Source: Acidobacteriota bacterium
GTDB lineage: Bacteria > Acidobacteriota > Thermoanaerobaculia > Multivoradales > UBA5704
Direction of reading: 5' to 3'
Assembly: GCA_040005235.1 (NCBI GenBank)
Contig: JBDTZG010000014.1
Coordinates: forward strand, 32,001 to 96,000
Length of the DNA: 64,000 bases
This document shows positions 6,101-22,300 of this stretch, in pieces. The notes under the pieces were generated by a model. The model did not search any database and had not been told where the DNA came from. It saw only the letters and a list, made by a program, of their open reading frames with translations. The translations under genes and the position numbers were made by a program. The stretch's first letter is position 1. Each line of letters opens with the position of its first letter.

Positions 6101-9100
6101 CCGCTCACCTCGCACGTCACCCGGAGGTGCGCGAGGCCCTGGTGATCGCTCAGAGCGGTGATGCCGGGGCGCAACTGGTGGCCTATTTCGTGAGCATCGA
6201 GGAGTTGGATGCGGATACGTTGCGCGCGTATCTCGCGGCCAGCCTACCGGACTACATGCTCCCCACGGCATTCGTACGAATCGCCGCGATCCCCTTGACG
6301 CCCAATGGAAAGGTGGACCGGACGGCGCTTCCGCCACCCAACCCGGCGGCGCCCGAACCGCAGACCTCCGCGCCGCGAACTCCCACCGAGGAGCTGCTCG
6401 CCGTCCTCTGGGCTCAGGTGTTGAGTCGCGATCGGGTCGGGGTCTTCGAAGATTTCTTTCGCCTGGGCGGTCACTCTCTCCTGGCCACCCGGCTGGTGGC
6501 TCGCGCACGCCAAACCTTCGGGCTCGACTTACCGTTGCGCAGCCTTTTCGAGGCTCCTACCATCGCCGCACTGGCCACGAGGATCGACGAACTTCGGAGG
6601 GTTGGCGGGCCGGCTCCTCCGCCGCCGATCGTTCGTTGGAACGCCGGCGGCGAGGTGCCGCTGTCGTTCGCTCAGGAGCGCCTCTGGTTCCTCGATCAAT
6701 TGGAGCCGGGAAGCCCCGCCTATTCTTTGCCGTATTTTGCCCGGATCCGCGGTTCGGTTTCCCCGGCGATTCTCGCGGGCGTCCTCCGCTTCTTGACTCG
6801 ACGCCATGAGAGCTTGCGCACCCGCTTTCCCGCGATCGCCGGGCGGCCGTTTCAGCAGATCGTGCCGGAGTCGTCTCTCCCTCTGCCGCAAGTGGATCTT
6901 GCCGGACTGCCCTCGGTCGTCCGGGAAGAGAAACTTGAGCACCTGTTGAGGGCGGCGGCGATGCGCCCGTGGAACCTGGCAACCGGTCCGCTCGTTCGCG
7001 CCTCGCTGATACGGCTCGGCGACGGAGACCAGGTTTTCGCCCTGTCTTTGCACCACATTGTTTCGGACGCTTGGTCGCGCGGTGTGCTGACGCGAGAGAT
7101 GGCCACGCTCTACGTTGCGGTGTTGCAGGCCGAGCCACCGTCGCTCGCTTCCCTGCCGCTTCGGTACTCTGATTTCGCCCACTGGCAGCGCAAGTGGCTG
7201 GATGGCGAAAATCTAGATTCCGAGGTCGCTTGGTGGTGCGCCCGACTCGACGGTATTCCGCCGCTTCAACTGCCGTTGGATCGGCCCCGGCACAAGGTGC
7301 GGAGCGGGCAGGGCTGTGTGCAGTCGGCGCCTCTGCCCCGCGGGTTTGAAGGGCGGGTGGAGGAGTTGGCAAAACGGCTGGGAGCCACGCCGTTCATGGT
7401 TCTTCTCTCGATCTACGCCACACAGCTCCATCGCTACACGGGAAGCGACCGGATCGTAGTGGGCGCTCCCATCGCGAACCGAAACCGGACCGAGATCGAG
7501 GGGCTGATCGGTTGCTTCGTCAACACTCTGGCGCTGCCTGTCCGTTTCGGAGTTGCTCTTTCTTTCGAGGGGCTCGTGGCGCAAATGCGGGAGACCTCTC
7601 TCGGCGCTTACGACCATCAGGATCTGCCGTTCGAGAAGCTCGTGGAGGCGATGATCGGAGAGCGAGACCTTCATCGGCCGCCTCTCGCATCGGTGGCCTT
7701 TCTGTATCAAACCGAGCCGATCGCGAGCCTCGATTTTGCCGGCCTCGTTTGGCAACCTCTCGACCTGCACAATGGTTCGGCGAAGTTTGACCTCGCCCTT
7801 GCCTTCACCGGCACGGAAGGCGAGCGCCGCGCGACCCTGGAGTACGACCGAGACCTCTTGGACGCGGCCACTGTCGTTCGAATGATTGGGCATTTCGGGC
7901 GCCTCGCCGACGCCGCGCTGGAGCGCCCGGAGTTGGCGCTCGTTGCGTTGCCGTTGCTGACCGCGGCGGAAGTCGCCGAGCTGACAGCTTGGAACCGCAC
8001 AGGCCGCACGTATCCGTCGGGCCTCTGCCTCCACCAGCTTTTCGAGGCCCAAGCCGGGCGAACGCCCGACGCCGAGGCGCTTATCTGGGGGCACGAGCGG
8101 ACGACCTATCGCGAGCTCGACCGGCGGGCCGATCAGGTGGCCTGGGAGCTTCGACGTTTGGGGGTAGGCCCAGAAGCGCGAGTAGGGGTCCTGCTCGAGC
8201 GGACCTCGAAGTTGGTGGTCGGACTTCTCGGCATCTTGAAGGCGGGAGCTGCCTACGTCCCGCTCGATCCGGCATACCCGACCGAACGTCTGGCGTGGAC
8301 GGCGAACGACGCAGGAATCGTCGCGGCGCTTGTCGATCTCGGTGCCCAGGACGCCGGTTCACCGGCTCGCTCCGAGCGGTTGGCGGCGATTTTCTCACCC
8401 TCCATGCCTCTGCTCGGTCTGCCGCCGGCGTCGGCGGCGAGGAACGGATTTCACTCGGAGGCCAGTACGGCCGGTCCCGGAAATTTGGCCTACTTGATCT
8501 ATACCTCAGGCTCTACCGGGCGCCCGAAAGCCGTGGCGATCGAGCACCGTAGCGCCGTGGTGCTGATGCGTTGGGCACGGGAAGTCTTCACCGCGGAGGA
8601 ATTGTCGGGGGTTTTGGGGGCCACTTCCATCTCGTTCGATCTATCGGTCTTCGAGCTTTTCGCCCCGCTTTCCTGGGGCGGCAAAGTGGTGCTGGCGGAC
8701 AGCGCCCTGTCTCTCCCTCACCTTCCGGCCGCCGCCGAGGTCAAGTTGGTCAACACGGTGCCTTCCGCGATGACCGAATTGCTTCGCCTGGCGGCAGTGC
8801 CCTCCGGAGCTCGGACGGTAAACCTCGCCGGAGAGTCGCTGCCTCGGTCGCTGGCTGACCGCCTCTACGGAACCGGACACGTCGTGAGGGTGCTCAACCT
8901 GTACGGCCCTTCCGAGGACACCACCTATTCCACCTGGTCGTTGGTCGCGGCGGACGACGTGCGGGCGCCGAACGTCGGGCGTCCCGTCCCTGAGACGCAG
9001 GCCTGGGTGTTGGACGCCCACCTCGGACTCCTCCCGAAGGGGGTGCCCGGCGAGCTCTACCTTGGCGGTGGTGGACTCGCCCGGGGTTACTTGGGACGGC

Positions 9101-12100
9101 CGGAGCTGACGGCCGAGCGTTTCGGGCCGGATCCCTTCGCCGCAGTGCCGGGAGCACGCCTTTACCGGACCGGTGATTTCTGCCGGCTGCGCGCCGACGG
9201 GGAGTTGGAATACCTCGGCCGCCTCGATCACCAGGTCAAGGTACGCGGTTTCCGCATCGAGCCCGGGGAGGTCGAAGCGGCGCTCCTCGCCTGCCACGGT
9301 GTACGCGAAGCGGTCGTCAGGGTCGGAGAGAACAGCACTCTGGTCGCCTGGGTCGCCGCCGATTCCCAGGACGCTCCGCTCGCCCCATCGCTGCGTCTAA
9401 TCCTGGGCGAGAAACTACCGCCCCATATGGTTCCCTCGGTCTTCGTCGAGCTCAAAGCGCTGCCGCGGACGCCCAATGGCAAGGTGGACCGGCAGGCCCT
9501 CCCGAATCCGGCGGAGGAGGGAGTGGCGAATGAGTCCGCGGGGCTCCACAGGTCGCCGATCGAAGAGGTTGTCGCGACGCTGTGGGCGGAGGTGCTCGGC
9601 GGTCGGTTGGCCGGGAGGGAGGAGAGCTTTTTCGAGATCGGCGGCCACTCGCTGCTGGCGGCACAGGTGGTGGCGCGAGTCCGCGTGACGTTCGGCGTGG
9701 AGCTCCCAGTACGAGCGCTTTTCGAAAGTCCGACGGTGGCTGGGCTGGCGACGGCGATTGAGCGAGGGCTAAGGGAAGAAAACGGCGTCGAAGTTCCGCC
9801 GATCGTGCGGGGAATGGCGGCGCCGGACCTACCGGCTCCCCTGTCCTTTGCCCAGGAACGTCTCTGGTTTCTCGATCAGCTGGCGCCGGGCGACCCGGCC
9901 TACAACATCACGCAGGCGATCCAAATGGTTGGCAAGCTTTATCCTTCTCTGCTGGAGCGGAGTCTGGCGGAGGTGGTTCGCCGGCACGAGACCCTGCGCA
10001 GCCGATTTTCCTTCCTGGACGGCGAGCCGGTCTCGGTCCTCGTTCCGGATTCGCGGTTCGCGCTTTCGGAGGTGGATCTTTCCCGGCTGCCGTCGACGAT
10101 CCGGCAGGAGGAGGCCGGCGCGTTGGCGCGTCGCGAGGCGCTGCGCGGATTCGACCTCGGCAGCGGACCGCTGGTCCGAGCCATCTTGCTGCGTCTCGAG
10201 GCCGAAGCCTTGCTGGCTCTCTTCGGTTTCCACCACATCGTCGGCGATGGCTGGTCCATGGGATTGATGGTCCGCGAGATCGGGGCGCTCTACGCCGCCT
10301 TTTGCCGCGGAAAAGGATCGCCGTTGACGGCTCTGCCGCTGAGCTATCGGGACTATGCGGCTTGGCAGCGGGAATGGCTGCGCGGGGAGGTGCTGGAGCG
10401 CGAGATCGCCGTTTGGCGAAGCCGCCTGAGCGGCGCTCCCGCGGTACTGGAGCTACCTGCGGATCGCCTTCGTGGCATTGCGGCCGGCTCCCGAGGAGCG
10501 GCGCTCCCGTTCGTATTGGACGCCAAGGTCGGCGCGAGCCTTGCCGGCCTCGGGCGACGGGAAGGAGCGACGCTGTTCATGGCGCTCCTGGCCGGCTTTC
10601 AGACGCTGCTTGCCCGCTACACCGGGGAGACCCGGATTCCGGTAGGCGTACCGGTGGCCGGTCGCCATCAAGTCGAGACCGAAGAGCTGATCGGGCTCTT
10701 CGTCAATACCCTCGTCCACTGCGGCAACCTCGACGAAGCCCCCACGTTCAGCGAGCTCCTCCAACGGGTCCGGAACGAAGCCCTGGAGGCGTGGGCGCAC
10801 CAGCACCTGCCGTTCGAAAAACTTGTCAGCGCGCTCCAGCCCGAGAGGAACCTGGGCAGTACGCCGTTGTTCCAGGTTCTGTTCGCGCTGCAGAACGCCC
10901 CTCTCCCCGAATTGGCGCTTCCCGGCCTGAGCGTGGAGCTCGTCGAAATACCTCGCGAATCCACCAAGTTCGATTTGAGTTTGGTGCTTGCCGAACGGCG
11001 CGGTGAGATCGTGGGTTGGGTGGAATACAGCACCGACCTCTTCGACCGCGTGCGAATCGAACGATTGGCCGGGCATCTGCGCACGCTGTATCAGGCGGTT
11101 GGTTTGGATGCGGGCAGGTCGGTGTCCGATCTTCCCTTGCTCGCTCCGGCGGAACGATCGCAGCTCGTCGACGAGTGGAACAACACCGGCGCGCCGGCCG
11201 GAGCGGACGGTCTACTGCATGCCCTGTTTGAAGATCAGGTTGCGCGGACACCGGAGGCCGTAGCTCTTGTATCCGGGCAGGAACGGCTCACCTATTCCGA
11301 CCTCGACGGACGAGCCGATCGTCTAGCGTCCTGGCTGCGGCGCCACGCCGTCGGCCCCGAGACCCGAGTTGCTGTTCTCCTCGAGCGAACGGTGGAGATG
11401 GTCGCAGCTCTCCTGGCGATCTTGAAAGCCGGCGGCGCTTACGTGCCTCTCGATCCGAGCTATCCGGATGAGCGGTTGGCAATGATGGCGGAGGATTCCG
11501 GGTTTACTGCGGTGGTCACCCAAAGCTCTCTGGTGACGCGGCTCCCGAGGTCGGTCGCCGATCTTCCCGTCGCCCGAATCGATGCCGACCGTGAGGAGAT
11601 CGACCGTGAATCGGGGCGGAATCGCATCTCCACCGTCGTGCCGCGGAATCTGGCTTACGTGATCTTCACCTCCGGCTCTACCGGCCGTCCGAAGGGGGTG
11701 GCCATCGAGCACCGCAGCGCGGTGGCGATGGTGCATTGGGCGCGCGGCGTTTTCTCCGCCGGTGAGCTCGAGGGTGTTCTGGCTTCGACCTCGATTTCTT
11801 TTGACCTTTCGGTGTTCGAAATCTTCGCCACCCTTTCCTGGGGAGGCAAGGTGGTCTTGGCGGGCAACGTCTTGGACCTGCCGCTTCTACCGGCCGCCGC
11901 CGAGGTTCGCCTGATCAATACCGTTCCTTCCGCCATTTCCGAGCTGCTTGCCGGCGGTGGCCTGCCGAAGTCGGTTCGCACGGTCAATCTCGCGGGAGAG
12001 GAGCTGCCTCTGCCTTTGGTCGACCGCCTTTTCGCCGCCGGCGTCGAGCGGGTCTATAACTTGTACGGGCCTTCCGAGGATACGACCTACTCCACCTTCG

Positions 12101-15100
12101 CCGGGATGACCCCGGGCTCCTCCCAAGCACCCGCAATCGGGCGACCGATCATCGGCACGCAGAGCTACCTGCTGGATTCCGGCCTGCAGCCGGCTCCGCT
12201 GGGGGTTCTGGGCGAATTGTTCCTCGGTGGAGCGGGGCTTGCCCGGGGATATCTCGGGCGGCCGGACCTTACGGCTGCCCGCTTCCTGCCGGATCCTTTC
12301 GGATCGACGGCCGGCGGTCGGCTCTACCGTACCGGAGACCTCTGTGCCTACCGTGCCAACGGCAAACTTGAGTTCCGGGGGCGTACCGATCATCAGACCA
12401 AAATTCGTGGTTTCCGGATCGAGCTCGGCGAGATCGAATCGGTACTGCTGGCCCAGAGGGGCGTTCACGATTCCGTAGTAGTGGCCCGCGAGCACCCGGC
12501 CGGCGGCAAGCAACTGGTGGCGTATGTCGTCCTGAACCCGGAGGATGAGACCAGAGGCACAGCCGCGATGGACCGGCTTCGCCATTCGATCGAACGTTTC
12601 CTGCCGGCTCACATGGTGCCTTCTGCCTTCGTCAGCCTGCCACAGTTGCCGCGCACCCCGAACGGAAAGGTGAATCGCTCGGCACTTCCCATGCCCGAGC
12701 GAGGCTCGGCCGCCCGCGCATTCACGAAGCCCGCTTCGGCGGCTGAAGAGAGCATGACGCGGCTGTGGGCTGACTTGCTCAAGATTTCGCCGGTGGGAAC
12801 CGAGGCCGACTTTTTCGATCTGGGAGGCCACTCGCTTCTCGCGGCGCGTCTGGTCCATAGGATTCGCGACGCCTTCGGCGTGGCCCTCCCCCTGCGGGCG
12901 GTGTTCGAAGCCCCGGTGCTCGCCGACCTCGTCGTGCAGGTCGAAGCGCTGCGCGGGCAAGGTGGGAAGGGGCCGGCCGTTCGCCTGCGGCAGCGAGATC
13001 GGGAGGGGACGGCCCCTCTCACTTTTGCCCAAGAGCGGCTTTGGTTCCTCGAACGATTCGATCAGGGGCGCTCCGCTTTGAACCTGCCGGTGGACCTGGA
13101 GATCCGCGGTTCGCTCCATTTCGTCGCCTTGAAGCGGAGCTTGTCGGAAGTGGTGCGTCGCCATGAAGTGCTGCGATCGGTGTTCCTGAATGTCGAGGGG
13201 AGCGGGTGTCAGAGAGTCATGGCTCCGGCGCCTCTGCTGTTGCCCCGGGTCGACCTGAAGGGATTGGCGCCGGACTTTCGCCAGGACGAGTGCTCCCGTC
13301 TGGTCTCCGGCGAGGCGCTACGGCCCTTCAATCTGGAAAAGGGTCCGCCGTTGCGCGCCCTGCTCGTTTCACTCGGCGGTCGGCTGCAAGTCTTGGGACT
13401 CACGCTTCACCATATCGTCGCCGACGGATGGTCCATCGGCACGCTGGTGCACGAGATGTCGGAGCTCTACCAGGCGTTTTCATCGGGCCGCGCCCTGCAG
13501 CTCCCCGAGTTGGCGGTGCAGTACGCGAGCTTTGCCGAGTGGCAGCGCTCCGAGGAATCCGCCGAGCTTTTTGGCCGACAGCTCGCTTATTGGCGAGAAC
13601 GCCTTGGCGGGGCACCCCCGAGCGTCGACCTTCCGACGGACCGTTTGCGGCCTTCGGTCCAGACCTATCGCGGCGCGCGTTGCACTCTGGTCTTGGAGCG
13701 CGAGCTCGCCGAGGGGCTCATTGCGGTCGGTCAGGCGCGCCATGCGACCTTGTTCATGACCCTGCTCGCGGCGTGGAAGGTACTCCTTTTTCGTTTCAGC
13801 GGTCAGACCGACCTGGTTGTCGGGACTCCTTTTGCCGGCCGCGTCAGCGTCGATCTGGAAGGGCTGATCGGCCTGTTCCTCAACTCGCTCGCTCTGCGCA
13901 CCGACCTGTCGGGCAACCCTTCATTCAGCGAGCTTTTGGATCGGGTGCGCGAGACGGCTCTGGGTGCTTACGCCAACGAGGACGTTCCCTTTGAGAAGGT
14001 CCTTGCGGAGCTGCGGCCGGAGCGCGATCTGAGCCGCACTCCGATCTTCCAAATCTTGTTCAACATGCTCAATTTTGAGGTGGCGGAGGTTCGCCTGCCC
14101 GATTTGGAGTTGCGCCTTCTCGCGACGCCGGAGCTGCCTTCGAAATTCGATCTTACGGTTTACGCCGCGGAGCGACCGGAAGGGATTCTGCTCACCCTGG
14201 TCTACAACGCGGACCTCTTCGACGGCCCCCGGATGACCGAGGCTCTGCGGCAGTTCCGGCTCCTCCTTTGCGGCATCGTCGCCGACCCGCAGATGCGGAT
14301 CGATCGGTTTTCGCTGGTTAGCCAGGACGCAGCGGCGATTCTGCCGGATCCCCGGGCCACTCTGGACGCCACCTGGTACGGTCCGGTACACCAGGTCTTC
14401 AGCCGCCGGGCCGCAGACGTTCCGGATGCCGCGGCGATCCTCGATCCGCAGGGCACGATGAGCTACGGCGAGCTCGATCGGCGCAGCAACCGTTTGGCAC
14501 GTTCCCTGGTCGAGGGCGGCCTCCGGACCGGCGACGCGGTGGCCGTCTACGCCCATCGTAGCTCGCCGATCGTGTGCGCGGTCCTGGCCATCATGAAGGC
14601 CGGTGGAGCGTTCGTAATTCTGGATCCGGCTTACCCGGCGCAGCGCATCATCGAGCTCATCGAAGTGGCCCAACCGCGCGCTTGGATGGAAATGACGGCC
14701 GCCGGCAACTTGGCGCCGGAGCTCGAGGAATATGTCTCCGCGAGATCCTGGTGTCCGAGGGTGCGGCTTCCCCCGGTGCGGGATACGACGCTCGCATGGG
14801 AGCAAGCATCGTCCGAGCCGCTACGGATCGAGGTGGGAAAAGACGACGTTGCCTATGTCGCCTTCACCTCGGGTTCTACCGGAATCCCCAAGGGTGTGCA
14901 GGGACGCCATGGTTCTTTGTCTCACTTCGTGCCTTGGCAGCAAAGCCACTTCGGCCTGGACGCTTCCGATCGGTTCTGCATGCTTTCGGGGATCGCTCAC
15001 GATCCTCTACAGCGGGACATTTTCACGCCGCTGCAAATCGGAGCTTCGATCGTCATTCCGGATCCCGGCGAAATGCTTGCTTCCGGCCGGCTTGCGGAGT

Positions 15101-16293
15101 GGCTGCAGCGCGAAGGAGTAACCGTCGCCCATCTCACCCCGGCCATGGGGCAGGTGATTGTCCAGGCAAAGGCGGGGACCGTTTTGGTTTCCTTGCGGTA
15201 CTCGTTTCTGGTGGGTGACGTGTTGACCCGCCGAGACGCCGCACGGTTGCAGCACCTGGCCCCCCGGATGACCTGTGTCAACTACTTTGGCTCGACCGAG
15301 ACCCAGCGTGCGGTGGGCTTTCACGTCGTTCCAAACGTGGTGGAAGCGAGCCTTGCGGGGGAAGTGAGCCAAGAGGTACTGCCTCTTGGGAGAGGTATCC
15401 GGGACGTTCAACTCCTCGTGTTGAACGCCAACGACCAACTCGCGGGAATCAGCGAAGTCGGCGAGATCTGTGTGCGAAGTCCGCATCTGGCACGCGGCTA
15501 CCTGGGCGATTCCGAGCTGACTTCGCGCAAGTTCGTCCCCAACCCTTTCACCGGTGCGTCCGAAGACCGCCTCTACCGCACCGGCGATCACGGCCGCTAT
15601 CTGGCGGACGGAGAAGTTGGGTTCCTCGGTCGGGCCGATCAGCAGGTCAAGGTTCGAGGTTTCCGGGTCGAGCTCGGCGAGATCCAGGCGGTCCTTGGGC
15701 GTCACTCCGGAGTCCGCGACGTAGTGGTGCTGCCGTGGAAGGACGGAACAGGGGCGACAAGATTGGCAGCCTACGCGGTGCCGAACCCGGGTGTCGATCT
15801 CGATACCGGCGAGCTGCGGAGCTTTCTCCAGGACCGCTTGGCGGCGTACATGGTCCCCTCGGTCTTCCTGATTCTCGACCGCCTGCCGATGACCCCCAAT
15901 GGCAAGCTCGACCGGCGCTCGCTTCCCGATCCTCTCACCGCACGACGTGGTGAGCAGGAGTATGTCCAACCGAGGACCCAAGTCGAGATGACGATCGCCG
16001 ACATCTGGCGCAAGGTACTCGAGGTGGACAAGATCAGCGCTTTCGACAATTTCTTCGACCTTGGTGGTCACTCGTTGTTGCTTCTCCAGGCCCATAGCGA
16101 GCTGGAGAAGCGGCTGAGACTTCAGATCGCGGTGGTTGACCTTTTCAGGTACCCCACGGTCAACGCGCTGGCCAAGGCCTTGACCCAGGACCCGGGTCCT
16201 CCGGACGAAACGCAACTCGATCGACGCGATCGAGCCACCCGCAGGTGGCAAGGGATCGAAGAACGCAAGAAAGGGCTAAGGCGGCAAAGATGA
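151..16293 (+). CDS. ORF1: five-module NRPS (C-A-T)x5; predicted Ala-like, Asp, Ala, Ala, alpha-aminoadipate
   Basis: 5380 aa ORF. Five C domains (SFAQxRLW..., HHxxxD), five A domains ([YF]TSGSTGxPKG, YRTGD, NGK[VL][DN]R) and five T domains (GGHSL). Confidence 0.97.
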   Translation: MVASHTNLVSRLSADQLRRIARQLREKGGAVGTDSLARLPRDQGGFPLSFAQERLWFLDQLEPGSISYNVGVKVRFRGRLDIAALRESLSRIAGRHEALRTCFRSVDGKSQQEIRPVEPVAVPLVDLAGFSAARSGAEAEALSLGGARTPFDLTRGPLLRATLLRVAEQEHLLVLVLHHIVCDGWSAGILVREFALLYAGRVEGREAALAELSVQYADFAVWQRLQVTQGAWAEQLAYWQGQLNGLPPLILRTDLQRPSISDGNGERHVLEFKPGTAEAVSELGRRAQATPFMVLWSVFSVLLARLAGQDDFGVATPVVGRSRPELQSLIGFFADTLVLRTSLSGNPTFGELLNLNREIVAAAFANQSMPFALLVKELAPDRVLGTTPLAQVMFSLEDRLSISSFAGLSVSLEEIDNRTAKFDLMLTLRFGANGLSGHLEYPTDLFEPVTVARIAAQLALLLETATTVPSVPVFDLPLLGAGERHQVVTEWNDNSRSAEARTVPDLLAAQAARAPDSTAVIHGLERFSYGELRARAHRLAGLLRQRGVGPEVRVGVCLERSFELVIALVAVLEAGGAYVPLDPTYPRERLSYILADSGAALVVTSEESVACLPTDGAVAVCLIRAAGDWRTAEEPMEISGYTPRALPESLAYLIYTSGSTGRPKGVGIEHRHAATFLTWARRAFLSSEIAGVLASTSVCFDLSVFELFVPLAWGGSVILADNVLNLLALPASTEITLVSSVPSAVAELVASGLPPGVRTVNLAGEALPRSLVDQLFAQPGVRRVLNLYGPSEDTTYSTMAVMRREDGRIPAIGRPIAETRAYVLDALLRPLPLGIPGELALSSRSLARGYLGRPELTAEKFVPDSLSGIPGERMYRTGDLVRWRADGELEFFGRADHQVKIRGFRIEMGEIEAALLEVPGIDEAVVEVFEAAGGDRRLAGFYVMRQVGSEVDDLPERLQARLPAYMVPASLLQIAALPRTANGKVDRRALPKPQWGSVNVGAAAPRSVVEQMLADIWCEALGVDRVGREDRFFDLGGHSLLATRVVSRVRSVLGIDIPVRAIFEARDLSALAARIEATVALAGGDSPEPPVPPLASLPRPEMVPLSFAQQRLWLIDQLRPGGATYNVPYALRAVGRLDIAALTRAFSEIARRHEGLRTRFAATENGEPAQWISPPLPVPLPLVDLSFLKDAGACAETVATAEARRPFDLVRGPLLRLCLLRLAKEEHLLLLNFHHIVMDGWSLGVLIGELAALYEAFVQGRPSPLPDLTIQYADFSLWQRQWLAGGALERQLFFWRSRLVGSRTLDLQTDRPRTGATGLRGGAQSVALPSDLVQAVQTQGRSLGATPFVVLLTAFAALLSRLSGHEDLCVAVPVAGRRRIETEPLIGYFVNTLVLRMDFSEGPMFLDAIGRIRRVVLEADAHQDLPFERLVEELQPERSLEQPPLAQVMFALQHLPPAPPSMPGLRLEGREVETGSAKFDLSLSLLTSSTTIEGRLGYDAELFLPATTIRFLRQYQVLLVAALRHPERQVADLPLLSEGERLQLVVDWNESGEALFAPPEALPLQIAARAAWTPDAPAVVFEGRSLTFGELNLRANQLAHFLLRRGAGSEKPVALLLERSEQVVIGMLGILKSGAPYIPLDPSLPPERLGAILVDSGARALVSTSRLSHRLPSTGLEGIQRVQLDSDASPIAAESTGEPSVRILRESLAYVIFTSGSTGRPKGVAVEHRQLAAYVRGVELRFGLAECASFALVSTFAADLGHTVVFPALVAGACLYVVSQERSGDADAFGDYFEQHSIDCLKIVPSHLAALLAGSRPQRALPRRKLILGGEASTWAEIDRIHLLAPGCRVYNHYGPTETTVGAVAFTASAGPREVERGFLRVPLGRPLPGSRVFVLDRQHQLVPVGVPGELWIGGVGVARGYVGRPDLTAERFFPDVWSGASGARIYRTGDLTRRLPGGDLEFLGRVDLQVKIRGFRVEPQEVAAHLARHPEVREALVIAQSGDAGAQLVAYFVSIEELDADTLRAYLAASLPDYMLPTAFVRIAAIPLTPNGKVDRTALPPPNPAAPEPQTSAPRTPTEELLAVLWAQVLSRDRVGVFEDFFRLGGHSLLATRLVARARQTFGLDLPLRSLFEAPTIAALATRIDELRRVGGPAPPPPIVRWNAGGEVPLSFAQERLWFLDQLEPGSPAYSLPYFARIRGSVSPAILAGVLRFLTRRHESLRTRFPAIAGRPFQQIVPESSLPLPQVDLAGLPSVVREEKLEHLLRAAAMRPWNLATGPLVRASLIRLGDGDQVFALSLHHIVSDAWSRGVLTREMATLYVAVLQAEPPSLASLPLRYSDFAHWQRKWLDGENLDSEVAWWCARLDGIPPLQLPLDRPRHKVRSGQGCVQSAPLPRGFEGRVEELAKRLGATPFMVLLSIYATQLHRYTGSDRIVVGAPIANRNRTEIEGLIGCFVNTLALPVRFGVALSFEGLVAQMRETSLGAYDHQDLPFEKLVEAMIGERDLHRPPLASVAFLYQTEPIASLDFAGLVWQPLDLHNGSAKFDLALAFTGTEGERRATLEYDRDLLDAATVVRMIGHFGRLADAALERPELALVALPLLTAAEVAELTAWNRTGRTYPSGLCLHQLFEAQAGRTPDAEALIWGHERTTYRELDRRADQVAWELRRLGVGPEARVGVLLERTSKLVVGLLGILKAGAAYVPLDPAYPTERLAWTANDAGIVAALVDLGAQDAGSPARSERLAAIFSPSMPLLGLPPASAARNGFHSEASTAGPGNLAYLIYTSGSTGRPKAVAIEHRSAVVLMRWAREVFTAEELSGVLGATSISFDLSVFELFAPLSWGGKVVLADSALSLPHLPAAAEVKLVNTVPSAMTELLRLAAVPSGARTVNLAGESLPRSLADRLYGTGHVVRVLNLYGPSEDTTYSTWSLVAADDVRAPNVGRPVPETQAWVLDAHLGLLPKGVPGELYLGGGGLARGYLGRPELTAERFGPDPFAAVPGARLYRTGDFCRLRADGELEYLGRLDHQVKVRGFRIEPGEVEAALLACHGVREAVVRVGENSTLVAWVAADSQDAPLAPSLRLILGEKLPPHMVPSVFVELKALPRTPNGKVDRQALPNPAEEGVANESAGLHRSPIEEVVATLWAEVLGGRLAGREESFFEIGGHSLLAAQVVARVRVTFGVELPVRALFESPTVAGLATAIERGLREENGVEVPPIVRGMAAPDLPAPLSFAQERLWFLDQLAPGDPAYNITQAIQMVGKLYPSLLERSLAEVVRRHETLRSRFSFLDGEPVSVLVPDSRFALSEVDLSRLPSTIRQEEAGALARREALRGFDLGSGPLVRAILLRLEAEALLALFGFHHIVGDGWSMGLMVREIGALYAAFCRGKGSPLTALPLSYRDYAAWQREWLRGEVLEREIAVWRSRLSGAPAVLELPADRLRGIAAGSRGAALPFVLDAKVGASLAGLGRREGATLFMALLAGFQTLLARYTGETRIPVGVPVAGRHQVETEELIGLFVNTLVHCGNLDEAPTFSELLQRVRNEALEAWAHQHLPFEKLVSALQPERNLGSTPLFQVLFALQNAPLPELALPGLSVELVEIPRESTKFDLSLVLAERRGEIVGWVEYSTDLFDRVRIERLAGHLRTLYQAVGLDAGRSVSDLPLLAPAERSQLVDEWNNTGAPAGADGLLHALFEDQVARTPEAVALVSGQERLTYSDLDGRADRLASWLRRHAVGPETRVAVLLERTVEMVAALLAILKAGGAYVPLDPSYPDERLAMMAEDSGFTAVVTQSSLVTRLPRSVADLPVARIDADREEIDRESGRNRISTVVPRNLAYVIFTSGSTGRPKGVAIEHRSAVAMVHWARGVFSAGELEGVLASTSISFDLSVFEIFATLSWGGKVVLAGNVLDLPLLPAAAEVRLINTVPSAISELLAGGGLPKSVRTVNLAGEELPLPLVDRLFAAGVERVYNLYGPSEDTTYSTFAGMTPGSSQAPAIGRPIIGTQSYLLDSGLQPAPLGVLGELFLGGAGLARGYLGRPDLTAARFLPDPFGSTAGGRLYRTGDLCAYRANGKLEFRGRTDHQTKIRGFRIELGEIESVLLAQRGVHDSVVVAREHPAGGKQLVAYVVLNPEDETRGTAAMDRLRHSIERFLPAHMVPSAFVSLPQLPRTPNGKVNRSALPMPERGSAARAFTKPASAAEESMTRLWADLLKISPVGTEADFFDLGGHSLLAARLVHRIRDAFGVALPLRAVFEAPVLADLVVQVEALRGQGGKGPAVRLRQRDREGTAPLTFAQERLWFLERFDQGRSALNLPVDLEIRGSLHFVALKRSLSEVVRRHEVLRSVFLNVEGSGCQRVMAPAPLLLPRVDLKGLAPDFRQDECSRLVSGEALRPFNLEKGPPLRALLVSLGGRLQVLGLTLHHIVADGWSIGTLVHEMSELYQAFSSGRALQLPELAVQYASFAEWQRSEESAELFGRQLAYWRERLGGAPPSVDLPTDRLRPSVQTYRGARCTLVLERELAEGLIAVGQARHATLFMTLLAAWKVLLFRFSGQTDLVVGTPFAGRVSVDLEGLIGLFLNSLALRTDLSGNPSFSELLDRVRETALGAYANEDVPFEKVLAELRPERDLSRTPIFQILFNMLNFEVAEVRLPDLELRLLATPELPSKFDLTVYAAERPEGILLTLVYNADLFDGPRMTEALRQFRLLLCGIVADPQMRIDRFSLVSQDAAAILPDPRATLDATWYGPVHQVFSRRAADVPDAAAILDPQGTMSYGELDRRSNRLARSLVEGGLRTGDAVAVYAHRSSPIVCAVLAIMKAGGAFVILDPAYPAQRIIELIEVAQPRAWMEMTAAGNLAPELEEYVSARSWCPRVRLPPVRDTTLAWEQASSEPLRIEVGKDDVAYVAFTSGSTGIPKGVQGRHGSLSHFVPWQQSHFGLDASDRFCMLSGIAHDPLQRDIFTPLQIGASIVIPDPGEMLASGRLAEWLQREGVTVAHLTPAMGQVIVQAKAGTVLVSLRYSFLVGDVLTRRDAARLQHLAPRMTCVNYFGSTETQRAVGFHVVPNVVEASLAGEVSQEVLPLGRGIRDVQLLVLNANDQLAGISEVGEICVRSPHLARGYLGDSELTSRKFVPNPFTGASEDRLYRTGDHGRYLADGEVGFLGRADQQVKVRGFRVELGEIQAVLGRHSGVRDVVVLPWKDGTGATRLAAYAVPNPGVDLDTGELRSFLQDRLAAYMVPSVFLILDRLPMTPNGKLDRRSLPDPLTARRGEQEYVQPRTQVEMTIADIWRKVLEVDKISAFDNFFDLGGHSLLLLQAHSELEKRLRLQIAVVDLFRYPTVNALAKALTQDPGPPDETQLDRRDRATRRWQGIEERKKGLRRQR
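289..3380 (+). other. Module 1: C(LCL-type)-A(Ala-like)-T
   Basis: HHIVCDGWS. Hand-read code DLFSNALTYK from FDLSVF, ITLVSSVPS, VNLAGE, NLYGPSEDTTYS. T motif GGHS at ~3257. Confidence 0.8.
3460..6590 (+). other. Module 2: C-A(Asp)-T
   Basis: HHIVMDGWS. Code DLTKIGHVGK from ADLGHT, CLKIVPSH, LILGGE, NHYGPTETTVG, matching the Asp-type signature. Confidence 0.8.
6660..9770 (+). other. Module 3: C-A(Ala)-T
   Basis: HHIVSDAWS. Code DLFNNALTYK (Ala-type). Confidence 0.8.
9840..12950 (+). other. Module 4: C-A(Ala)-T
   Basis: HHIVGDGWS. Code DLFNNALTYK (Ala-type). Confidence 0.8.
13015..16190 (+). other. Module 5: C-A(Lys2-like, alpha-aminoadipate)-T
   Basis: HHIVADGWS. A motifs FTSGSTGIPKGVQGRH, LSGIAHDPLQRDIFTPL, GRLAEW, HLTPAMGQ, VGDVLTRRD, GSTETQRAV match fungal Lys2 motifs as I recall them. 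Code DPRHFVYRAK. Confidence 0.8.
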
Positions 16294-16308: not shown

Positions 16309-19300
16309 GTGGCTGAAACGGCGGTCGAGAAGGGAATTGCGATCATCGGCCTAGATGGCCGCTTCCCGGGTGCTCGAAACGCAGAAGAGTTGTGGCAGAA
16401 CCTCTGCGAAGGTGTCGAATCGCTCTCCCGGTTCTCACAGGAAGAGCTGCGCGCGTCGAGCCCTGACGGGACGCGCCTGGAGGATCCGCGGTTGGTACCT
16501 GTTCGCGGTGTTCTTTCCGAGGTCGAGCTTTTCGACGCCGGCTTTTTCGGGATAAGTCCACGCGAGGCGGCCGCGACCGATCCGCAGCAGCGTGTCTTCA
16601 TCGAATGCGCCTGGACCGCGTTGGAGGACGCCGGCTACGACCCGGGCAACTGCGGAGGCCTTGTCGGCGTTTACGCAGGCTCCGCGCTCAGCTCCTACGC
16701 CTGGAACAACCTGGGCTCGGACCCGGAGCTCCTGGCATCGCTGGGAGCCCTCCAGCTCGGCATTTTGAACGGCAAGGACCACCTGCCGACCCGAGTTTCC
16801 TACCTTTTGAATCTCACCGGTCCGAGCGTTGCGGTGCAGACGGCCTGCTCGACGTCCTTGGTGGCCGTACACATGGCCTGCCTTGCCTTGCTCAACTACG
16901 AGTGCGACATGGCGCTGGCGGGAGGCGTCAGCATCGCGGTGCCGCAAAAGGCAGGCTATCTGTTCGAAGAGGGGGGAATCTTGTCGCCGGACGGGCACTG
17001 TCGCGCTTTCGACGCCGCTGCCCATGGCACGGTGATGGGCGATGGCGTCGGCATCGTGGTGCTCAAGCGTCTCGATGAGGCAATGGCGGACGGCGACCGT
17101 ATTCGCGGGGTGATCCTCGGTTCGGCAATCAACAATGACGGCGGAGGAAAGGTTGGCTACACCGCTCCGGGTTTGGAGGGTCAGGCGGAGGTCATCGCGG
17201 CGGCCCATGCGGTGGCGGGGATCGACGCAGGAACGATCAGCTATGTGGAGACGCACGGCACCGGCACCCCTTTGGGCGATCCGGTGGAGATTTCGGCCCT
17301 GACTCGCGCCTTCCGAATGAGCACGGACCGTATCGGTTCCTGTTCTATCGGTTCGCTCAAGACCAATATCGGGCACCTCAACACGGCGGCAGGTGTCGCC
17401 GGCTTGATCAAAGCGGTCCTTGCCCTCGAGCACAAGGCGATCCCACCGAGTTTGCACTTCGAGCGGCCCAATCCACGGATCCATTTTGACGACAGCCCCT
17501 TCTTCGTCAACACGCGTTTGACGGAATGGTCGGCCGACGGCGCGCCGCTCCGCGCGGGTGTCAGTTCGTTCGGCATTGGCGGAACCAACGCCCACGTCGT
17601 TCTTGAGGAAGCTCCGGTGCCGGAGGTGTCCGATGACGCGCGGCGCTGGCAATTGTTGGTGATCTCGGCCAAAACCGAGTCCGCCCTTGAAGCGGCGGCC
17701 CAGAACTTGGCGGAGCACCTCGGCCGGCACCCTGACTTGAAGCTCGCGGACGCTGCCTTCACGTTGCAAGTCGGACGCAACCGCATGGAGCATCGCCAGA
17801 TCTTGGTCTGCCGCGATGCCGCGGAAGCGATCCGCGAGCTGACGGCCGGCGAGGACTCGCGGGCCGTGCGGCTGCACGAAGCGGCTCGGGAGCGGCCGGT
17901 GGTTTTCCTCTTCCCGGGGCAAGGTTCACAGTACGTCGGCATGGGACGCGAGCTCTTCGAGCTCGAGCCTCTCTTTAGAGAGCAGGTTGATCTCTGCGCC
18001 TCTCATCTTTTGCCGCACTTGGGATTCGACATTCGAACGCTCTTCGAGAGCTCAACCGAGGAGTCGCGGGCAGCGGAGGAGCGGCTTCAGGAAACCGCGG
18101 TAGCGCAACCGGCTCTGTTTGTCGTCGAATACTGCCTTGCCCGCCTGTTTGCCGAGTGGGGCATCGAGCCGGAGGCGATGATCGGGCATTCGATCGGGGA
18201 GTACGTCGCCGCCTGTCTTTCCGGGGTCATGAGCCTTCCTGACGCCCTACGTCTGGTGGCGGCCCGGGGTCGCCTCATGGGGGAGTTACCACCCGGCGGG
18301 ATGACCGCGGTTCACCTTTCTGAAGCCCAGGTTAGACATCTTCTACCTGCGGATTTGGAGATCGCGGCGGTCAATGGGCCGACGCTAGTCGTGGTGGCGG
18401 GAACCCTTACCGCCGTGGCGGCTTTTGAAGAAAAGCTGGCTGAGGACGGTGTCGAGCATCGACGGCTCAAGACCTCTCACGCTTTCCACTCCGCGATGAT
18501 GGAGCCGATCTTGGAGCCCTTCGCCCGCGTGGTGGCCTCGATCGCGTTGCACGAACCGCAGCGGACCTTCATTTCAAATCTGACCGGACGACCGGCGACC
18601 GCCTCCGAAGTTACGGACCCCAACTATTGGGTCCGCCACTTGCGCGACGAAGTACGTTTCTCCGACGGTGTCGACGAGATATTCCGCGATCCAGGGCGGG
18701 TCTTCCTTGAGATCGGGCCAGGCCGAGCGCTGACCACGATCGTCCGGCAGAATCCTGGCGCGCAGGCCGGGATGACAATCCCCACCATGCGCCCGCAGTC
18801 TCGGGAAGGGTCGGACTTGGCTTGGGCGCTGGAGGCCCTGGGTCGCGCCTGGCTCGCGGGGGTGGCGATCGATTGGCGCGGTTTCCACCACCGCCATCGC
18901 CGCTTGCGGGTGGCGATGCCTGGTTATCCGTTCGAACGGCAACTGCATTGGATCGAGGCGCGTCCTCTCCGACCGTCCGGACCTCTCTCCGCAATTCCGG
19001 CAAGGAGCGCGGACCCCGCGGGCTGGTTCCATGCCCGGACTTGGCGGCGATCGGCAGGACAGGGCTCAGCCGCGACCGAACCGGGCGCCCTCCTACTGTG
19101 GGCCGCGCCCGGCGGTTTGGGCGGTGAAATCCACCGTGAGCTCACCTCGCGCGGCGTTGCGGTGGTGCTCGCCGAGCTTTCGGGCAGTCTGGAGCCTAGT
19201 TCCTTAACCGCCAGCCTTGCGGAAGAGGTCGCCCCACGACGTATCGCTCTGTTGGTGGAGCGTTGTACGCCGGGGCCGGAAGCAGCCGGGGCGCTCGCCC

Positions 19301-22300
19301 TCCTACTCTCCTCCCTGGCCTCTCGTCCGGAAGGTCGCGATGATTCGCCGGAGCTGATCCTGGTCACCGAATGCGCCGAAGAGGTGGTTGGCAGCGAAGT
19401 GACGAACGCGGTCCCTAACGACACCCTCGCCACCTTGATGGCAGAGGCCGCTCGGATGCCCGGTCTCCGCTGGCGCTGCGTGGACGTTGATGTCGAAGGA
19501 GAAAGCCCGCGGAGCGACAAGCTCGTCGACGAGTTGCTCGCGCCGGGACCGGCCGGCGTGGGGTCTGTGGTGGCCCTTCGAAACGGCTATCGATGGCTGC
19601 CGGCTTACGAGGTGGTTCACTTGGAGCATCGCGCGGGAGCCATTCGGCCCGGCGGTGGTTATCTGGTGGTGGGCCAGATAGGGGTGGCAAGCCAGTCCGT
19701 GCTCGCCGCGTTCGCGGAGGCGGGCGCACAGGCGCAGCTCATCCCGGCCGATCCGGCCGTAATCCTCGCATCTCCGGCGTTTGCATCCAATCTGCACGGA
19801 ATCGTCGTCACGGGCGGTTGGGAGACTCCTGCAGACACTCTCGCGGCGCTCGACGTCGCCCTCGGCGGTCGCGCGCTGGATTTCCGGCTCGTCCTCGCCC
19901 CATTCGCTGCTGGGCAGGAGATCGAAATTGGCGAAACCGTCGCCGAACGGCGGCTTGCCGCAGCGGTTCGCGTCCGTGCCCAAGCCGGTGGTGTCCGCTG
20001 GCGGATCGCCTCCTGGCGGATCACCTCGAGATCGGGTGATGACCAGGGGCTGACCCCGGGGGAGGCCGCGGAAGCCTTCCTGAGGCTCATCACGTGGCAG
20101 GGAGAGGCTCACCTCGTCGTGGCGCCCGTCGACCCTTCGGTTGCGGTACCCGTCGCCGAACCGCTCTCGTTCGCGGCAGAGCTTAAGCCAACAGGCAAGG
20201 GCGGGTATGTGGCGCCGCGCAACGCGGTAGAACGCGATTTGGCTGCGATCTGGGAGCACTTCCTGGGGATCGCTGCCGTGGGCGTTTTCGACAGTTTTCT
20301 CGAGCTCGGCGGACACTCCTTGCTGGCGACGCGCGTGACTGCGCGGATGCGCGAGGTCTTCGGGGTCGAACTGCCGCTCAGCAGCCTCTTCGAGAGCCCC
20401 CACTTGGCCGCGCTGGCCGTCGAAATCGGTGCGCGCCGAGAATCTCTGGGTGAGCCGTCGTCTGCTGCGCAGAGTCCGGCTTTTCACGCGATTGCCGCCC
20501 CGGCGGATCGTTATGATCCGTTTCCCCTTACCGAGGTGCAGCAAGCTTACTGGATCGGGCGTAGCGCCGGATTTGAGCTGGGGAATGTGGCAGCGCACAG
20601 CTACCTTGAGGCGGAGACTCGGAATCTCGATCTCTCGCGGCTTGAGGCGGCGCTCGATCGGCTCGTAAACCGCCACGAAATGTTGCGGGCGGTCGTAACA
20701 CGCGATGGTCAGCAGCGAATTTTGGCTGAGGTTCCGACTTATCGCATTGAAGTCGATGATCTTCGGGGTATGGCCCCAGAGGCTGCGGAAGCGGTCCTCA
20801 AGGAGACGCGAGCTCGCCTGGCGCAAGAGGTCGTACCGACCGACCGCTGGCCGCTTTTCGCCGTGCGCGCCTCGCTCCTGGATTCGGGCGCAACTCGCCT
20901 GCACATCCGACTCGATTACCTGATCGCCGACGCTTGGAGCGCTCGGACTTTGGCACGCGATGTCGGAGCTTTCTACGCCGATCCGACGATTTTCCTGCCG
21001 AACCTCGAGGTCTCGTTCCGAGATTATGTCCTTTGGCTGGAATCCCTGCGCGAAACCGAAGAGCATCGACGAGCCCTCGCCTACTGGCAGGGACGGCTGG
21101 AAAATCTTCCTCCGGCACCGGATCTACCTCTCGCGGTGAGTCCAACCACCCTGCTGAAGCCGCGCTTCGAGCGTCGGCGCGCCGCCCTGCCGGCCTTCCA
21201 TTGGGGGGAGCTCAAGCGCCGCTTCGCACAGGCGGACCTCGCGCCTTCCGCAGCGCTGGCGGCGGTATTTGCAGAGATTCTCACCGGTTGGAGCAAGAGT
21301 CCTCGTTTCACCATCAATCTGACGCTGTTCAATCGTCGGCCGGTGCATGCCCAAGTTGGGGAGTTGGTCGGCGATTTTACCTCTCTCACCTTGTTGGCGG
21401 TGGAGAGCGAACCAGGCGGCGGATTCCTGTCACGAGCCCGCGCCTTACAGCGGCAACTGTGGCGGGACCTTGACCACCAATCGGTGAGCGCCGTTCAGGT
21501 GTTACGCGACCTTTCCCGAGAACGCGGCGAGCTGGCGCGAGGATCGATGCCGGTCGTCTTTACCAGCACTTTGAGCATGACCACCGGCACTTCCGCGGCT
21601 GAGACGGAGGCGAGCGTTGCCGACCCTGTCCAGGTGGTCTACAGCCTCAACCAGGGACCGCAGGTCTGGATCGACCATCAGGTCTCGGAGCGTCAAGGGG
21701 AGCTCGTTTTCAATTGGGATGTCGTGGAGGGCCTTTTCCCACCGGGGCTGATCGACGCGATGTTCGAGGCCTATCGTGCGCTTTTGGAGACGCTCGCCCA
21801 GGCCGATGAAGCTTGGGGGGTTGTCCCGTTGCCCTTGGTGTCAACCGCCCAGCTCGAACAGCGTGCTGCGGTAAATGCCACCGAGGCACCCGTCACCGAC
21901 GATCTCCTTCACACCTTGTTCCGCGCGCAGGCAGCCCGTCGGCCCGAGGCGACGGCGGTAGTCGCCGGAGATCGCCGATTGACCTATGGCGAGCTCGCCG
22001 CACGTGCCGGCTGGCTAGGCCGTCGGCTGCGAGATTTGGGAGCACGGCCCAACACGCTGATTGCGGTGGCGATGGAAAAGGGTTGGGAACAGGTGGCTGC
22101 GGTGCTCGGCGTGCTCGAGGCCGGTGCCGCCTATCTGCCGGTCGATCCGTCGCTGCCCTCCGACCGGCTGGGATATCTGCTCGCCCATGGTGAGGTTCGA
22201 ATCGCCCTCACGCAGTCCTGGCTGGAACATCGTCTCGACTGGCCACCCGGAATCGTGCGCATCTGCGTCGACCGTGAGCCCGCGAAAGAGGGACTCGAAC

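Follow-up and report, generated by a model that had tools for sequence, protein, structure and literature searches.

The 64-kb window analysed here (64,000 nucleotides of contig JBDTZG010000014.1 in assembly GCA_040005235.1 of an Acidobacteriota bacterium) is a single run of same-strand genes for nonribosomal peptide synthetases (NRPS) and polyketide synthases (PKS), and the adenylation (A) domain in the fifth module of its first open reading frame (ORF1), here called A5, is by its sequence of the type of the fungal aminoadipate reductase Lys2 over the whole length of the A domain. A5 appears to be an active adenylation domain, with the A domain of fungal Lys2 as its nearest characterised relative by sequence, and it is one member of a well-separated, sizeable and apparently uncharacterised bacterial clade with hundreds of members. 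The reading favoured overall, to which a probability of about 0.45 is assigned, is that A5 would take L-2-aminoadipate (Aad), adenylate its δ-carboxyl group and deliver the residue, tethered through its side chain, to a ketosynthase (KS) domain for extension. A preliminary description, made from the sequence alone, had presented A5 as a singular case, which was overstated given the size of the clade; its sequence-level reading of the domain was right and the chemistry it proposed seems reasonable.

Lys2-type character of A5

Module 5 of ORF1 shows the Pfam order Condensation, AMP-binding, AMP-binding_C and PP-binding and is a complete elongation module of condensation (C), adenylation and carrier (T) domains (C-A-T). 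The best NCBIfam model for A5 is TIGR03443, an equivalog model of L-aminoadipate-semialdehyde dehydrogenase with a curated cut-off of 1030.1 bits. A5 scores 541.1 bits over profile positions 193–751, and with the C-domain part added the region reaches 555.4 bits over positions 2–751, both values lying under the cut-off; on the generic A-domain model TIGR01733, A5 scores 393.7 bits. In the A domain of module 1 (A1), used as control, the order of the models is reversed (173.8 bits on TIGR03443 and 419.4 bits on the generic model), and the A domain of module 4 is absent from the TIGR03443 matches listed at E 1e-100. TIGR03443 is also the top family in nine of nine subtype representatives of the clade, at 474.6–580.7 bits. 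The claim of a Lys2-type A domain in a bacterial NRPS was thus borne out, with TIGR03443 as the top family of a domain in a complete C-A-T module.

All seven motifs quoted for A5 in the preliminary description were found between positions 14341 and 15915, in module 5 of ORF1 (Table 1). At the site where A5 carries LPDP, a linker that we take to be common to Lys2, modules 1–4 read EWN, DWN, AWN and EWN, and this difference, together with the scores of A5 and A1 on the Lys2 model, agrees with the departure from the other A domains that had been noted. In phmmer comparisons with A5, whose self-score is 1345 bits, the A domains of modules 1–4 reach 218–256 bits; A5 is set apart from its neighbours far beyond chance. 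That A5 is inactive was considered and rejected because its core motifs A3, A5, A7, A8 and A10 are all intact. A specificity code of DPRHFVYRAK was read for A5 from the alignment columns. On the other A domains of the genome these columns yield canonical codes, among them DFWNIGMVHK in four; since Table 2 of PMC3547906 prints DFWNIGMVHK for Thr, the mapping of the code columns is sound. A5 keeps P236, R239 and H278, in line with the pattern of A domains that activate side-chain carboxyl groups (P236, R239 and H or N at 278), which is printed for Zmn16 A1 and which we take to hold for Lys2, ACVS A1 and McyE as well. The code of yeast Lys2, which we take to be DPRHFVMRAK, would then differ from that of A5 at one position; this assumed Lys2 code occurs exactly in two clade members (P0056 and L060). 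No Lys2-type A domain was present in the PDB among the best 60 of 103 matches, the top match, LgrA, being a sum over two ordinary A domains, and a search of the ESM Atlas with A5 returned generic A-domain clusters alone.

Despite this likeness, which extends to the region ahead of A5 in that it aligns with the N-terminal ADA region of Lys2 and related aminoadipate reductases, A5 is not a Lys2 orthologue, because the module has no reductase, because a full-length C domain stands ahead of A5 and because the score remains under the 1030-bit cut-off. No thioester reductase follows the carrier, as ORF1 stops after T5 and ORF2 opens with a KS, and no TIGR03443 match in the genome extends past profile position 937 of 1390. 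No truncated ADA domain was found at the N-terminus, where C5 is a full-length, catalytic C domain with an HHxxxDG motif, in contrast to the truncated ADA of Lys2. In contrast to Lys2, too, A5 lies within a multimodular secondary-metabolite line in which the thioester is handed to a KS. A role in lysine biosynthesis through the aminoadipate pathway is not indicated, with LysW and homocitrate synthase not over their cut-offs and the contig being devoted to NRPS/PKS genes.

Substrate and regiochemistry

A5 probably activates the side-chain carboxyl group of an acidic amino acid, as its code pattern suggests, while the identification of this amino acid as Aad is more tentative and stands at slightly less than an even chance. 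In the favoured reading, A5 would select L-2-aminoadipate and adenylate its distal (δ) carboxyl group, so that the residue would hang on T5 by its side chain, and C5 would acylate the α-amino group with the upstream peptide, presumably Ala-Asp-Ala-Ala going by the codes that we assume for modules 1–4. The KS of ORF2 would extend the side-chain thioester by one malonyl unit, with no active ketoreductase (KR) acting afterwards, and the product, a 2-acylamino-6-oxo-octanedioyl unit with a free α-carboxylate, would be passed to the next C domain. If one substrate has to be named, Aad is the likeliest, because positions 299–331 of A5 (F, V, Y, R, A) follow the code assumed for Lys2 and not that of Zmn16 (L, A, L, L, A).

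Zmn16 A1 from the zeamine/fabclavine line is a bacterial A domain that resembles A5 in its DPRH code and in a residue joined by the side-chain carboxyl; it differs in belonging to a loading module, in its code and in its residue, Asp, and it could be compared with A5 by code alone. Its code is DPRHLALLAK and the NRPSpredictor call is 2-aminoadipate, as given in the data printed in PMC3547906, and the structure of prezeamine determined by nuclear magnetic resonance opens with a residue that its authors call γ-aspartate, i.e., Asp linked by its side-chain carboxyl group. By analogy, Zmn16 provides a printed precedent for side-chain attachment of acidic amino acids by DPRH-type domains; by the same analogy, it tells against Aad, as a domain with a DPRH code may be mislabelled 'Aad'. 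A5 may accordingly use a proteinogenic acidic substrate, Glu activated at the γ-carboxyl or Asp at the β-carboxyl, as in Glu modules of the microcystin type and in the zeamine loading module; the chain would then still run through the side chain with a free α-carboxylate and the unit would be one or two carbons shorter. Such a substrate would need no dedicated supply, whereas genes for the supply of Aad were recognised neither here nor in five other carriers, and in Zmn16 a predicted Aad corresponds to a side-chain-linked Asp in the product. We nevertheless consider Glu or Asp rather unlikely, as the whole A5 domain scores highest on the Lys2 model and its positions 299–331 side with the Lys2 code that we assume.

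Two further systems can be compared with A5 as read here, i.e., as a domain tethering Aad by its side chain. The D-Glu module of McyE/NdaF is presumably similar in that its C domain acylates the α-amine of a γ-tethered Glu, leaving a free α-carboxylate, and in a code that starts with DPRH; as we take it, it differs in its substrate Glu, in code positions 299–331 and in being followed by a C domain instead of a KS. Module 1 of ACV synthetase (ACVS) uses the δ-carboxyl of Aad and thus, like A5 in the favoured reading, activates the side chain of Aad inside an NRPS, with a C-domain relic ahead of its A domain, according to the sections of PMC7884236 on this enzyme. It differs in being an initiation module without upstream condensation on the α-amine, and after its A-T unit comes a C domain instead of a KS. 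The ACVS A1 code, which we take to be EPRNIVEFVK, has P236, R239 and N278 in common with the DPRN subtypes of the clade, and there are hints in the sequences that ACVS A1 may derive from the DPRN branch.

The Lys2 likeness of A5 could also reflect ancestry only, the domain activating the α-carboxyl group in the ordinary manner, for instance that of an acidic amino acid held by two arginines, and the KS would then receive a normal α-aminoacyl or peptidyl thioester. D235 and K517 are retained in A5, the C-A-T layout of module 5 is an ordinary one and an ordinary C domain comes next in 38 of the 83 clade domains. To our knowledge, however, every characterised relative of the DPRH or EPRN type (Lys2, ACVS, McyE) uses the distal carboxyl. 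This use is printed for Zmn16 and, in the part of PMC7884236 on ACVS, for module 1 of that enzyme, and clade subtypes without D235 exist; the replacement of D235 is expected if an amino group beside the activated carboxyl is not needed. Activation of the α-carboxyl of A5's substrate is, on these grounds, quite unlikely. Least probable of the alternatives is another substrate, such as a modified or hydroxylated acidic or diacid-like amino acid from an unrecognised pathway: the codes of the clade fall into several subtypes, in which position 330 is R or Q and position 278 is H or N, and some members adjoin TauD-type or luciferase-like oxygenase domains detected by Pfam, but no such tailoring enzyme adjoins module 5.

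Several points weigh against Aad activation through the δ-carboxyl. Code position 322 is variable within the clade (Y, F, L, M, S, H, A), the codes of Lys2, ACVS and McyE that were compared with A5 are those that we assume for these enzymes, and no assay of any clade member was found in the literature covered, which comprised main texts outside subscription journals. To these is added the supply of Aad, for which the preliminary description had proposed to look for an aminoadipate lysine pathway or a lysine 6-aminotransferase in the genome; LAT_fam, LysW and homocitrate synthase are none of them over cut-off. In the source genome the best match to LAT_fam, the lysine 6-aminotransferase family, reaches 145.7 bits (cut-off 520.8) and the best homocitrate synthase match 173.3 bits (cut-off 413.6), while no LysW was detected by a search whose controls were positive in Thermus, Deinococcus, Haloferax and Sulfolobus. 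LAT and LysW were over cut-off in none of the five other carrier genomes, and no Aad supply gene lies on the 106-kb contig. The genome encodes three PF03435 proteins, all without NCBIfam name and with weak PDB matches, one of which weakly resembles PDB 3abi (43 bits). This protein of 384 amino acids (aa) (L083:3518-4672; contig C66 of the source genome G000, minus strand) is the sole lead for Aad supply that was found; 3abi is, as we assume, an archaeal lysine dehydrogenase, which would make the L083 protein a candidate lysine 6-dehydrogenase. The lack of recognised genes in the families probed lowers the odds for Aad without excluding it.

Hand-over to the polyketide synthase module

T5 is directly followed by a KS and an acyltransferase (AT) with intact motifs, and domain calls and motifs together identify a hybrid NRPS-to-PKS junction. 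The proposal that the module feeds a PKS therefore holds, as the KS-AT of ORF2 begins 15 nucleotides (nt) after ORF1 and has its active-site motifs. In similarity to T5, carriers located before a KS score a median of 60 bits (n = 21), those before a C domain 36.5 bits (n = 38) and those before a thioesterase (TE) 37 bits (n = 15). By the usual rule, as we understand it, the GHSIG and HAFH motifs make the AT of ORF2 malonyl-type.

The stretch of about 440 aa between the AT and the carrier of the PKS module is probably a decayed KR, going by its position and its remnant similarity. It shows no Pfam match at E 0.001, no GxGxxG motif and no paralogue in the genome, and a sub-threshold match to the KR prefix reaches 22 bits. 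In the corresponding slot of four related loci, KR domains are present in three, clearly in L060 (150.6 bits) and weakly in L009 and L011, with none in the orthologue L003. With a decayed KR the β-keto group would persist, unless a stand-alone short-chain dehydrogenase/reductase (SDR) at the contig end acts on it. The 2-amino-6-oxo-octanedioyl unit that had been proposed is a consistent prediction, given that the AT is of malonyl type and that no active KR was detected.

A bacterial clade of Lys2-type adenylation domains

Scored against A5 by phmmer, 1184 A-domain matches from 271 proteins (270 from database searches plus ORF1) are distributed bimodally, with a main mode at 200–300 bits and 147 domains, A5 included, at 450 bits or more. 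When the search was confined to the pocket stretch of A5, 2171 of 2760 candidate proteins of 621–1978 aa matched at E 1e-10; the best 120 of these 2171 are all bacterial or metagenomic, those with names belonging mostly to Thermoanaerobaculia, Pyrinomonadaceae and Longimicrobium, and the best 120 of 7962 matches in a broader protein search come from prokaryotes or metagenomes alone. When prokaryotes were scanned at one genome for each species, 301 relatives were obtained, 80 of which were retained as 79 loci, and the clade counts on named genomes rest on 83 domains in these loci. The hosts are mostly Acidobacteriota (Thermoanaerobaculia, Pyrinomonadaceae, Blastocatellia, Holophagales, Terriglobia), Chloroflexota and cyanobacteria (Nostoc, Stigonema, Allocoleopsis, Aetokthonos hydrillicola), and further members occur in Binatia and 'Deltaproteobacteria'. 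Cultured carriers include A. hydrillicola CCALA 1050 (L070) and Brevibacillus borstelensis (P0070). The nearest relative among the loci kept, in a Thermoanaerobaculum metagenome-assembled genome (MAG; L003), is 78% identical and continues in the same way with KS, AT, gap and carrier. In a tree of 153 A domains built with FastTree, a quick method used with no bootstrap and no outgroup, the 83 Lys2-like rows are separated from 70 other A domains of the genome with an SH-like support of 100, and A5 falls on the clade's side of this branch. Plasmids yielded no clade member, the best of 318 matching records being 38.7% identical, and among 301 genomes sampled from the phylum, with two candidates scored per genome, three matches at E 1e-140 were obtained, none over the cut-off. 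One of these three, the locus L090, has a match that extends into a reductase region but an ordinary A domain (245 bits). In the literature covered, main texts outside subscription journals, no paper was found that describes a Lys2-type A domain in bacterial C-A-T modules, nor any containing the codes and motifs of A5 as words; the 'Lys2' in the matching text of PMC12042044 is a residue number.

After the A-T unit, the 83 clade domains are followed by a C domain (38), a KS (21), a TE (17), a new A domain (2) or nothing or the contig end (5). The KS junction was therefore rejected as a clade-defining feature, because just 21 of the 83 members have a KS next. In the source genome, with six type I KS domains in total, both clade cases that could be evaluated (A5 and one on contig C118) precede a KS, and in two database proteins (P0281 and P0371) a KS is fused in the same chain as the clade domain. 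The DPRH..R.. code subtype is followed by KS, C or TE; of the 18 DPRN cases, 17 have a C domain next; the DPRHFGFQAK subtype is mostly cyanobacterial and followed by a TE. The DPRN loci are L010, L014, L016, L020, L025, L035, L036, L043, L046, L047, L049, L050, L072, L074, L077 and L078. N or S replaces D235 in some subtypes (NHRHFGFRAK, SLRHFAFRAK, SHRHFGFRAK). Codes of this kind are found in metagenome proteins of about 2780–2830 aa that end in a clade A domain (P0011–P0017, P0023–P0025, P0028, P0032 and others), and the codes of this set suggest a substrate without an amino group beside the activated carboxyl.

Two further A5-like A domains are encoded in the source genome, on contigs C118 and C84. 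The C118 domain belongs to a stand-alone C-A-T protein of 1218 aa (L001:317-3970; G000:C118:153317-156970) whose A domain has the code DPRHLVLRAK and contains an insertion; the ORF that follows, from G000:C118:156808, encodes 6894 aa and opens with KS-AT, and a copy of the module with 94% identity is present in another Thermoanaerobaculia MAG (L055). The C84 domain (L002:3-1475, minus strand) is of the Q330 subtype with the code DPRHFGFQA- and lies at the cut end of an ORF of 7176 aa.

The paired condensation domain and the origin of Lys2

Where a C domain is paired with a Lys2-like A domain, its C-terminal half aligns to positions 2–187 or 2–190 of the Lys2 profile with 42.4–60.6 bits (all six cases examined); C1–C4 of ORF1 score 18.0–34.2 bits, with alignments that end at positions 133–143. 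The pieces compared were 220 aa long for the Lys2-like-paired domains and 200 aa for C1–C4, whose alignments ended well inside the pieces. In similarity to C5, C domains paired with clade members reach a median of 423 bits (n = 66) and other C domains one of 354 bits (n = 99); by sequence, the C domains paired with clade A domains form their own group. As C5 resembles the C domains of other clade modules and these domains align to the ADA region, the C-A pair behaves as one inherited unit that matches ADA-A of Lys2.

In PMC7884236, both ADA of the Lys2-type reductases and the C* domain of ACVS are described as truncated C domains, and these N-terminal relics of Lys2 and ACVS are suggested to be signs of descent from an elongation module. 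The bacterial proteins consisting of an A domain plus acyltransferase were placed as sister to the fungal aminoadipate reductases and were the sole bacterial sisters found there, with more bacterial sampling urged, in the relevant passages of PMC2823734. The preliminary description had suggested that the C-A-T unit may bear on the origin of Lys2. This part gains some support from the alignment of the C5 half with the ADA region, and the C-A sequence data lend some support to the published idea of an elongation module, without giving the direction of descent. In a bolder reading, which we regard as rather doubtful, the bacterial C-A-T modules would be surviving examples of the elongation module that gave rise to fungal Lys2 and perhaps to ACVS module 1; on the route to Lys2 the C-terminal half of the C domain would have become ADA, followed by A and T domains and an added reductase. 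Side-chain-linked Aad would then be a common, overlooked peptide/polyketide building block in Acidobacteriota, Chloroflexota and cyanobacteria.

Organisation of the locus

The window belongs to a 106-kb contig (C132) that consists nearly entirely of NRPS/PKS genes and comes from a genome of 6.2 Mb in 140 contigs, with a completeness rating of 100% and about 75 A domains; the GC content of the window is 0.62–0.66. Read at its longest, ORF6 shares 169 nt (58758-58926) with the end of ORF5, and the true start of ORF6 is therefore probably located further downstream. Two A domains of ORF2 (21919-24858 and 25309-29300) contain an inserted methyltransferase domain with Methyltransf_12/25/11 matches. 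The domain order of ORF4 is KS-AT-acyl carrier protein-class III aminotransferase-C. This layout presumably makes β-amino acyl units, as in lines of the mycosubtilin and microcystin type, and we take it to be the one ahead of the D-Glu module in McyE. Accessory genes on C132 (18401-22700 and 101301-106205; L085 and L087) encode a MacB/FtsX-type permease, an SDR of 258 aa, which is stand-alone and sits at the contig end, and a carbamoyltransferase of 736 aa, together with three further ORFs (481, 312 and 359 aa) without Pfam match.

Table 1. Coordinates of the reading frames, domains and motifs in the 64-kb window.
Feature	Position	Strand	Description
ORF1	151..16293	+	NRPS, 5380 aa, five C-A-T modules
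C5	13003..14334	+	Full-length condensation domain; Pfam Condensation 2-452/456, 315 bits; HHIVADG active-site motif
C5 C-terminal half	13591..14250	+	Aligns to Lys2 profile positions 2-187 (ADA-equivalent); 46.8 bits on TIGR03443
A5	14251..16050 (stretch analysed)	+	Lys2-like adenylation domain; Pfam AMP-binding 14398-15504, AMP-binding_C 15679-15906
LPDP	14341-14352		A5 linker motif
KGVQGRH	14890-14910		A5 motif
A5 pocket stretch	14983..15315	+	Yields code positions 235-331 (D, P, R, H, F, V, Y, R, A)
LSGIAHDPLQRDIFTPL	14983-15033		A5 motif
GRLAEW	15085-15102		A5 motif
HLTPAMGQ	15130-15153		A5 motif
VGDVLTRRD	15211-15237		A5 motif
TETQRAV	15295-15315		A5 motif
PNGKLDR	15895-15915		A5 motif with A10 lysine
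T5 carrier	15994..16182	+	Pfam PP-binding; GGHS serine 16063-16074; subtype preceding KS domains
Basic C-terminal tail after T5	16183..16293	+	Possible docking element, going by its sequence
ORF2	16309-35310		KS first; 15-nt gap after ORF1 stop
KS	16333..17463	+	Pfam ketoacyl-synt, Ketoacyl-synt_C; TACS cysteine, HGTGT and NIGH present
AT	17902..18855	+	Pfam Acyl_transf_1; GHSIG and HAFH motifs
AT-carrier gap	18886..20208	+	About 440 aa without family match; probably decayed KR
PKS-module carrier	20236..20418	+	Pfam PP-binding; LGGHS
Next condensation domain	20521..21801	+	Pfam Condensation; leads chain into further NRPS modules
ORF3	35314-48138		
ORF4	48135-54293		
ORF5	54301-58926		
ORF6	from 58758		

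Implications

Predictors that label such domains 'Aad' remain unvalidated and their calls should be used with caution. If the substrate call for A5 is true, it would add a branching unit with a free carboxylate to the structure prediction for many clusters of uncultured lineages. With entire C-A-T modules that carry an A domain of Lys2 type now available from the clade, phylogeny can be used to test where Lys2 came from, and if the origin considered here is true, a hallmark enzyme of fungal primary metabolism would have come from a bacterial secondary-metabolite module.

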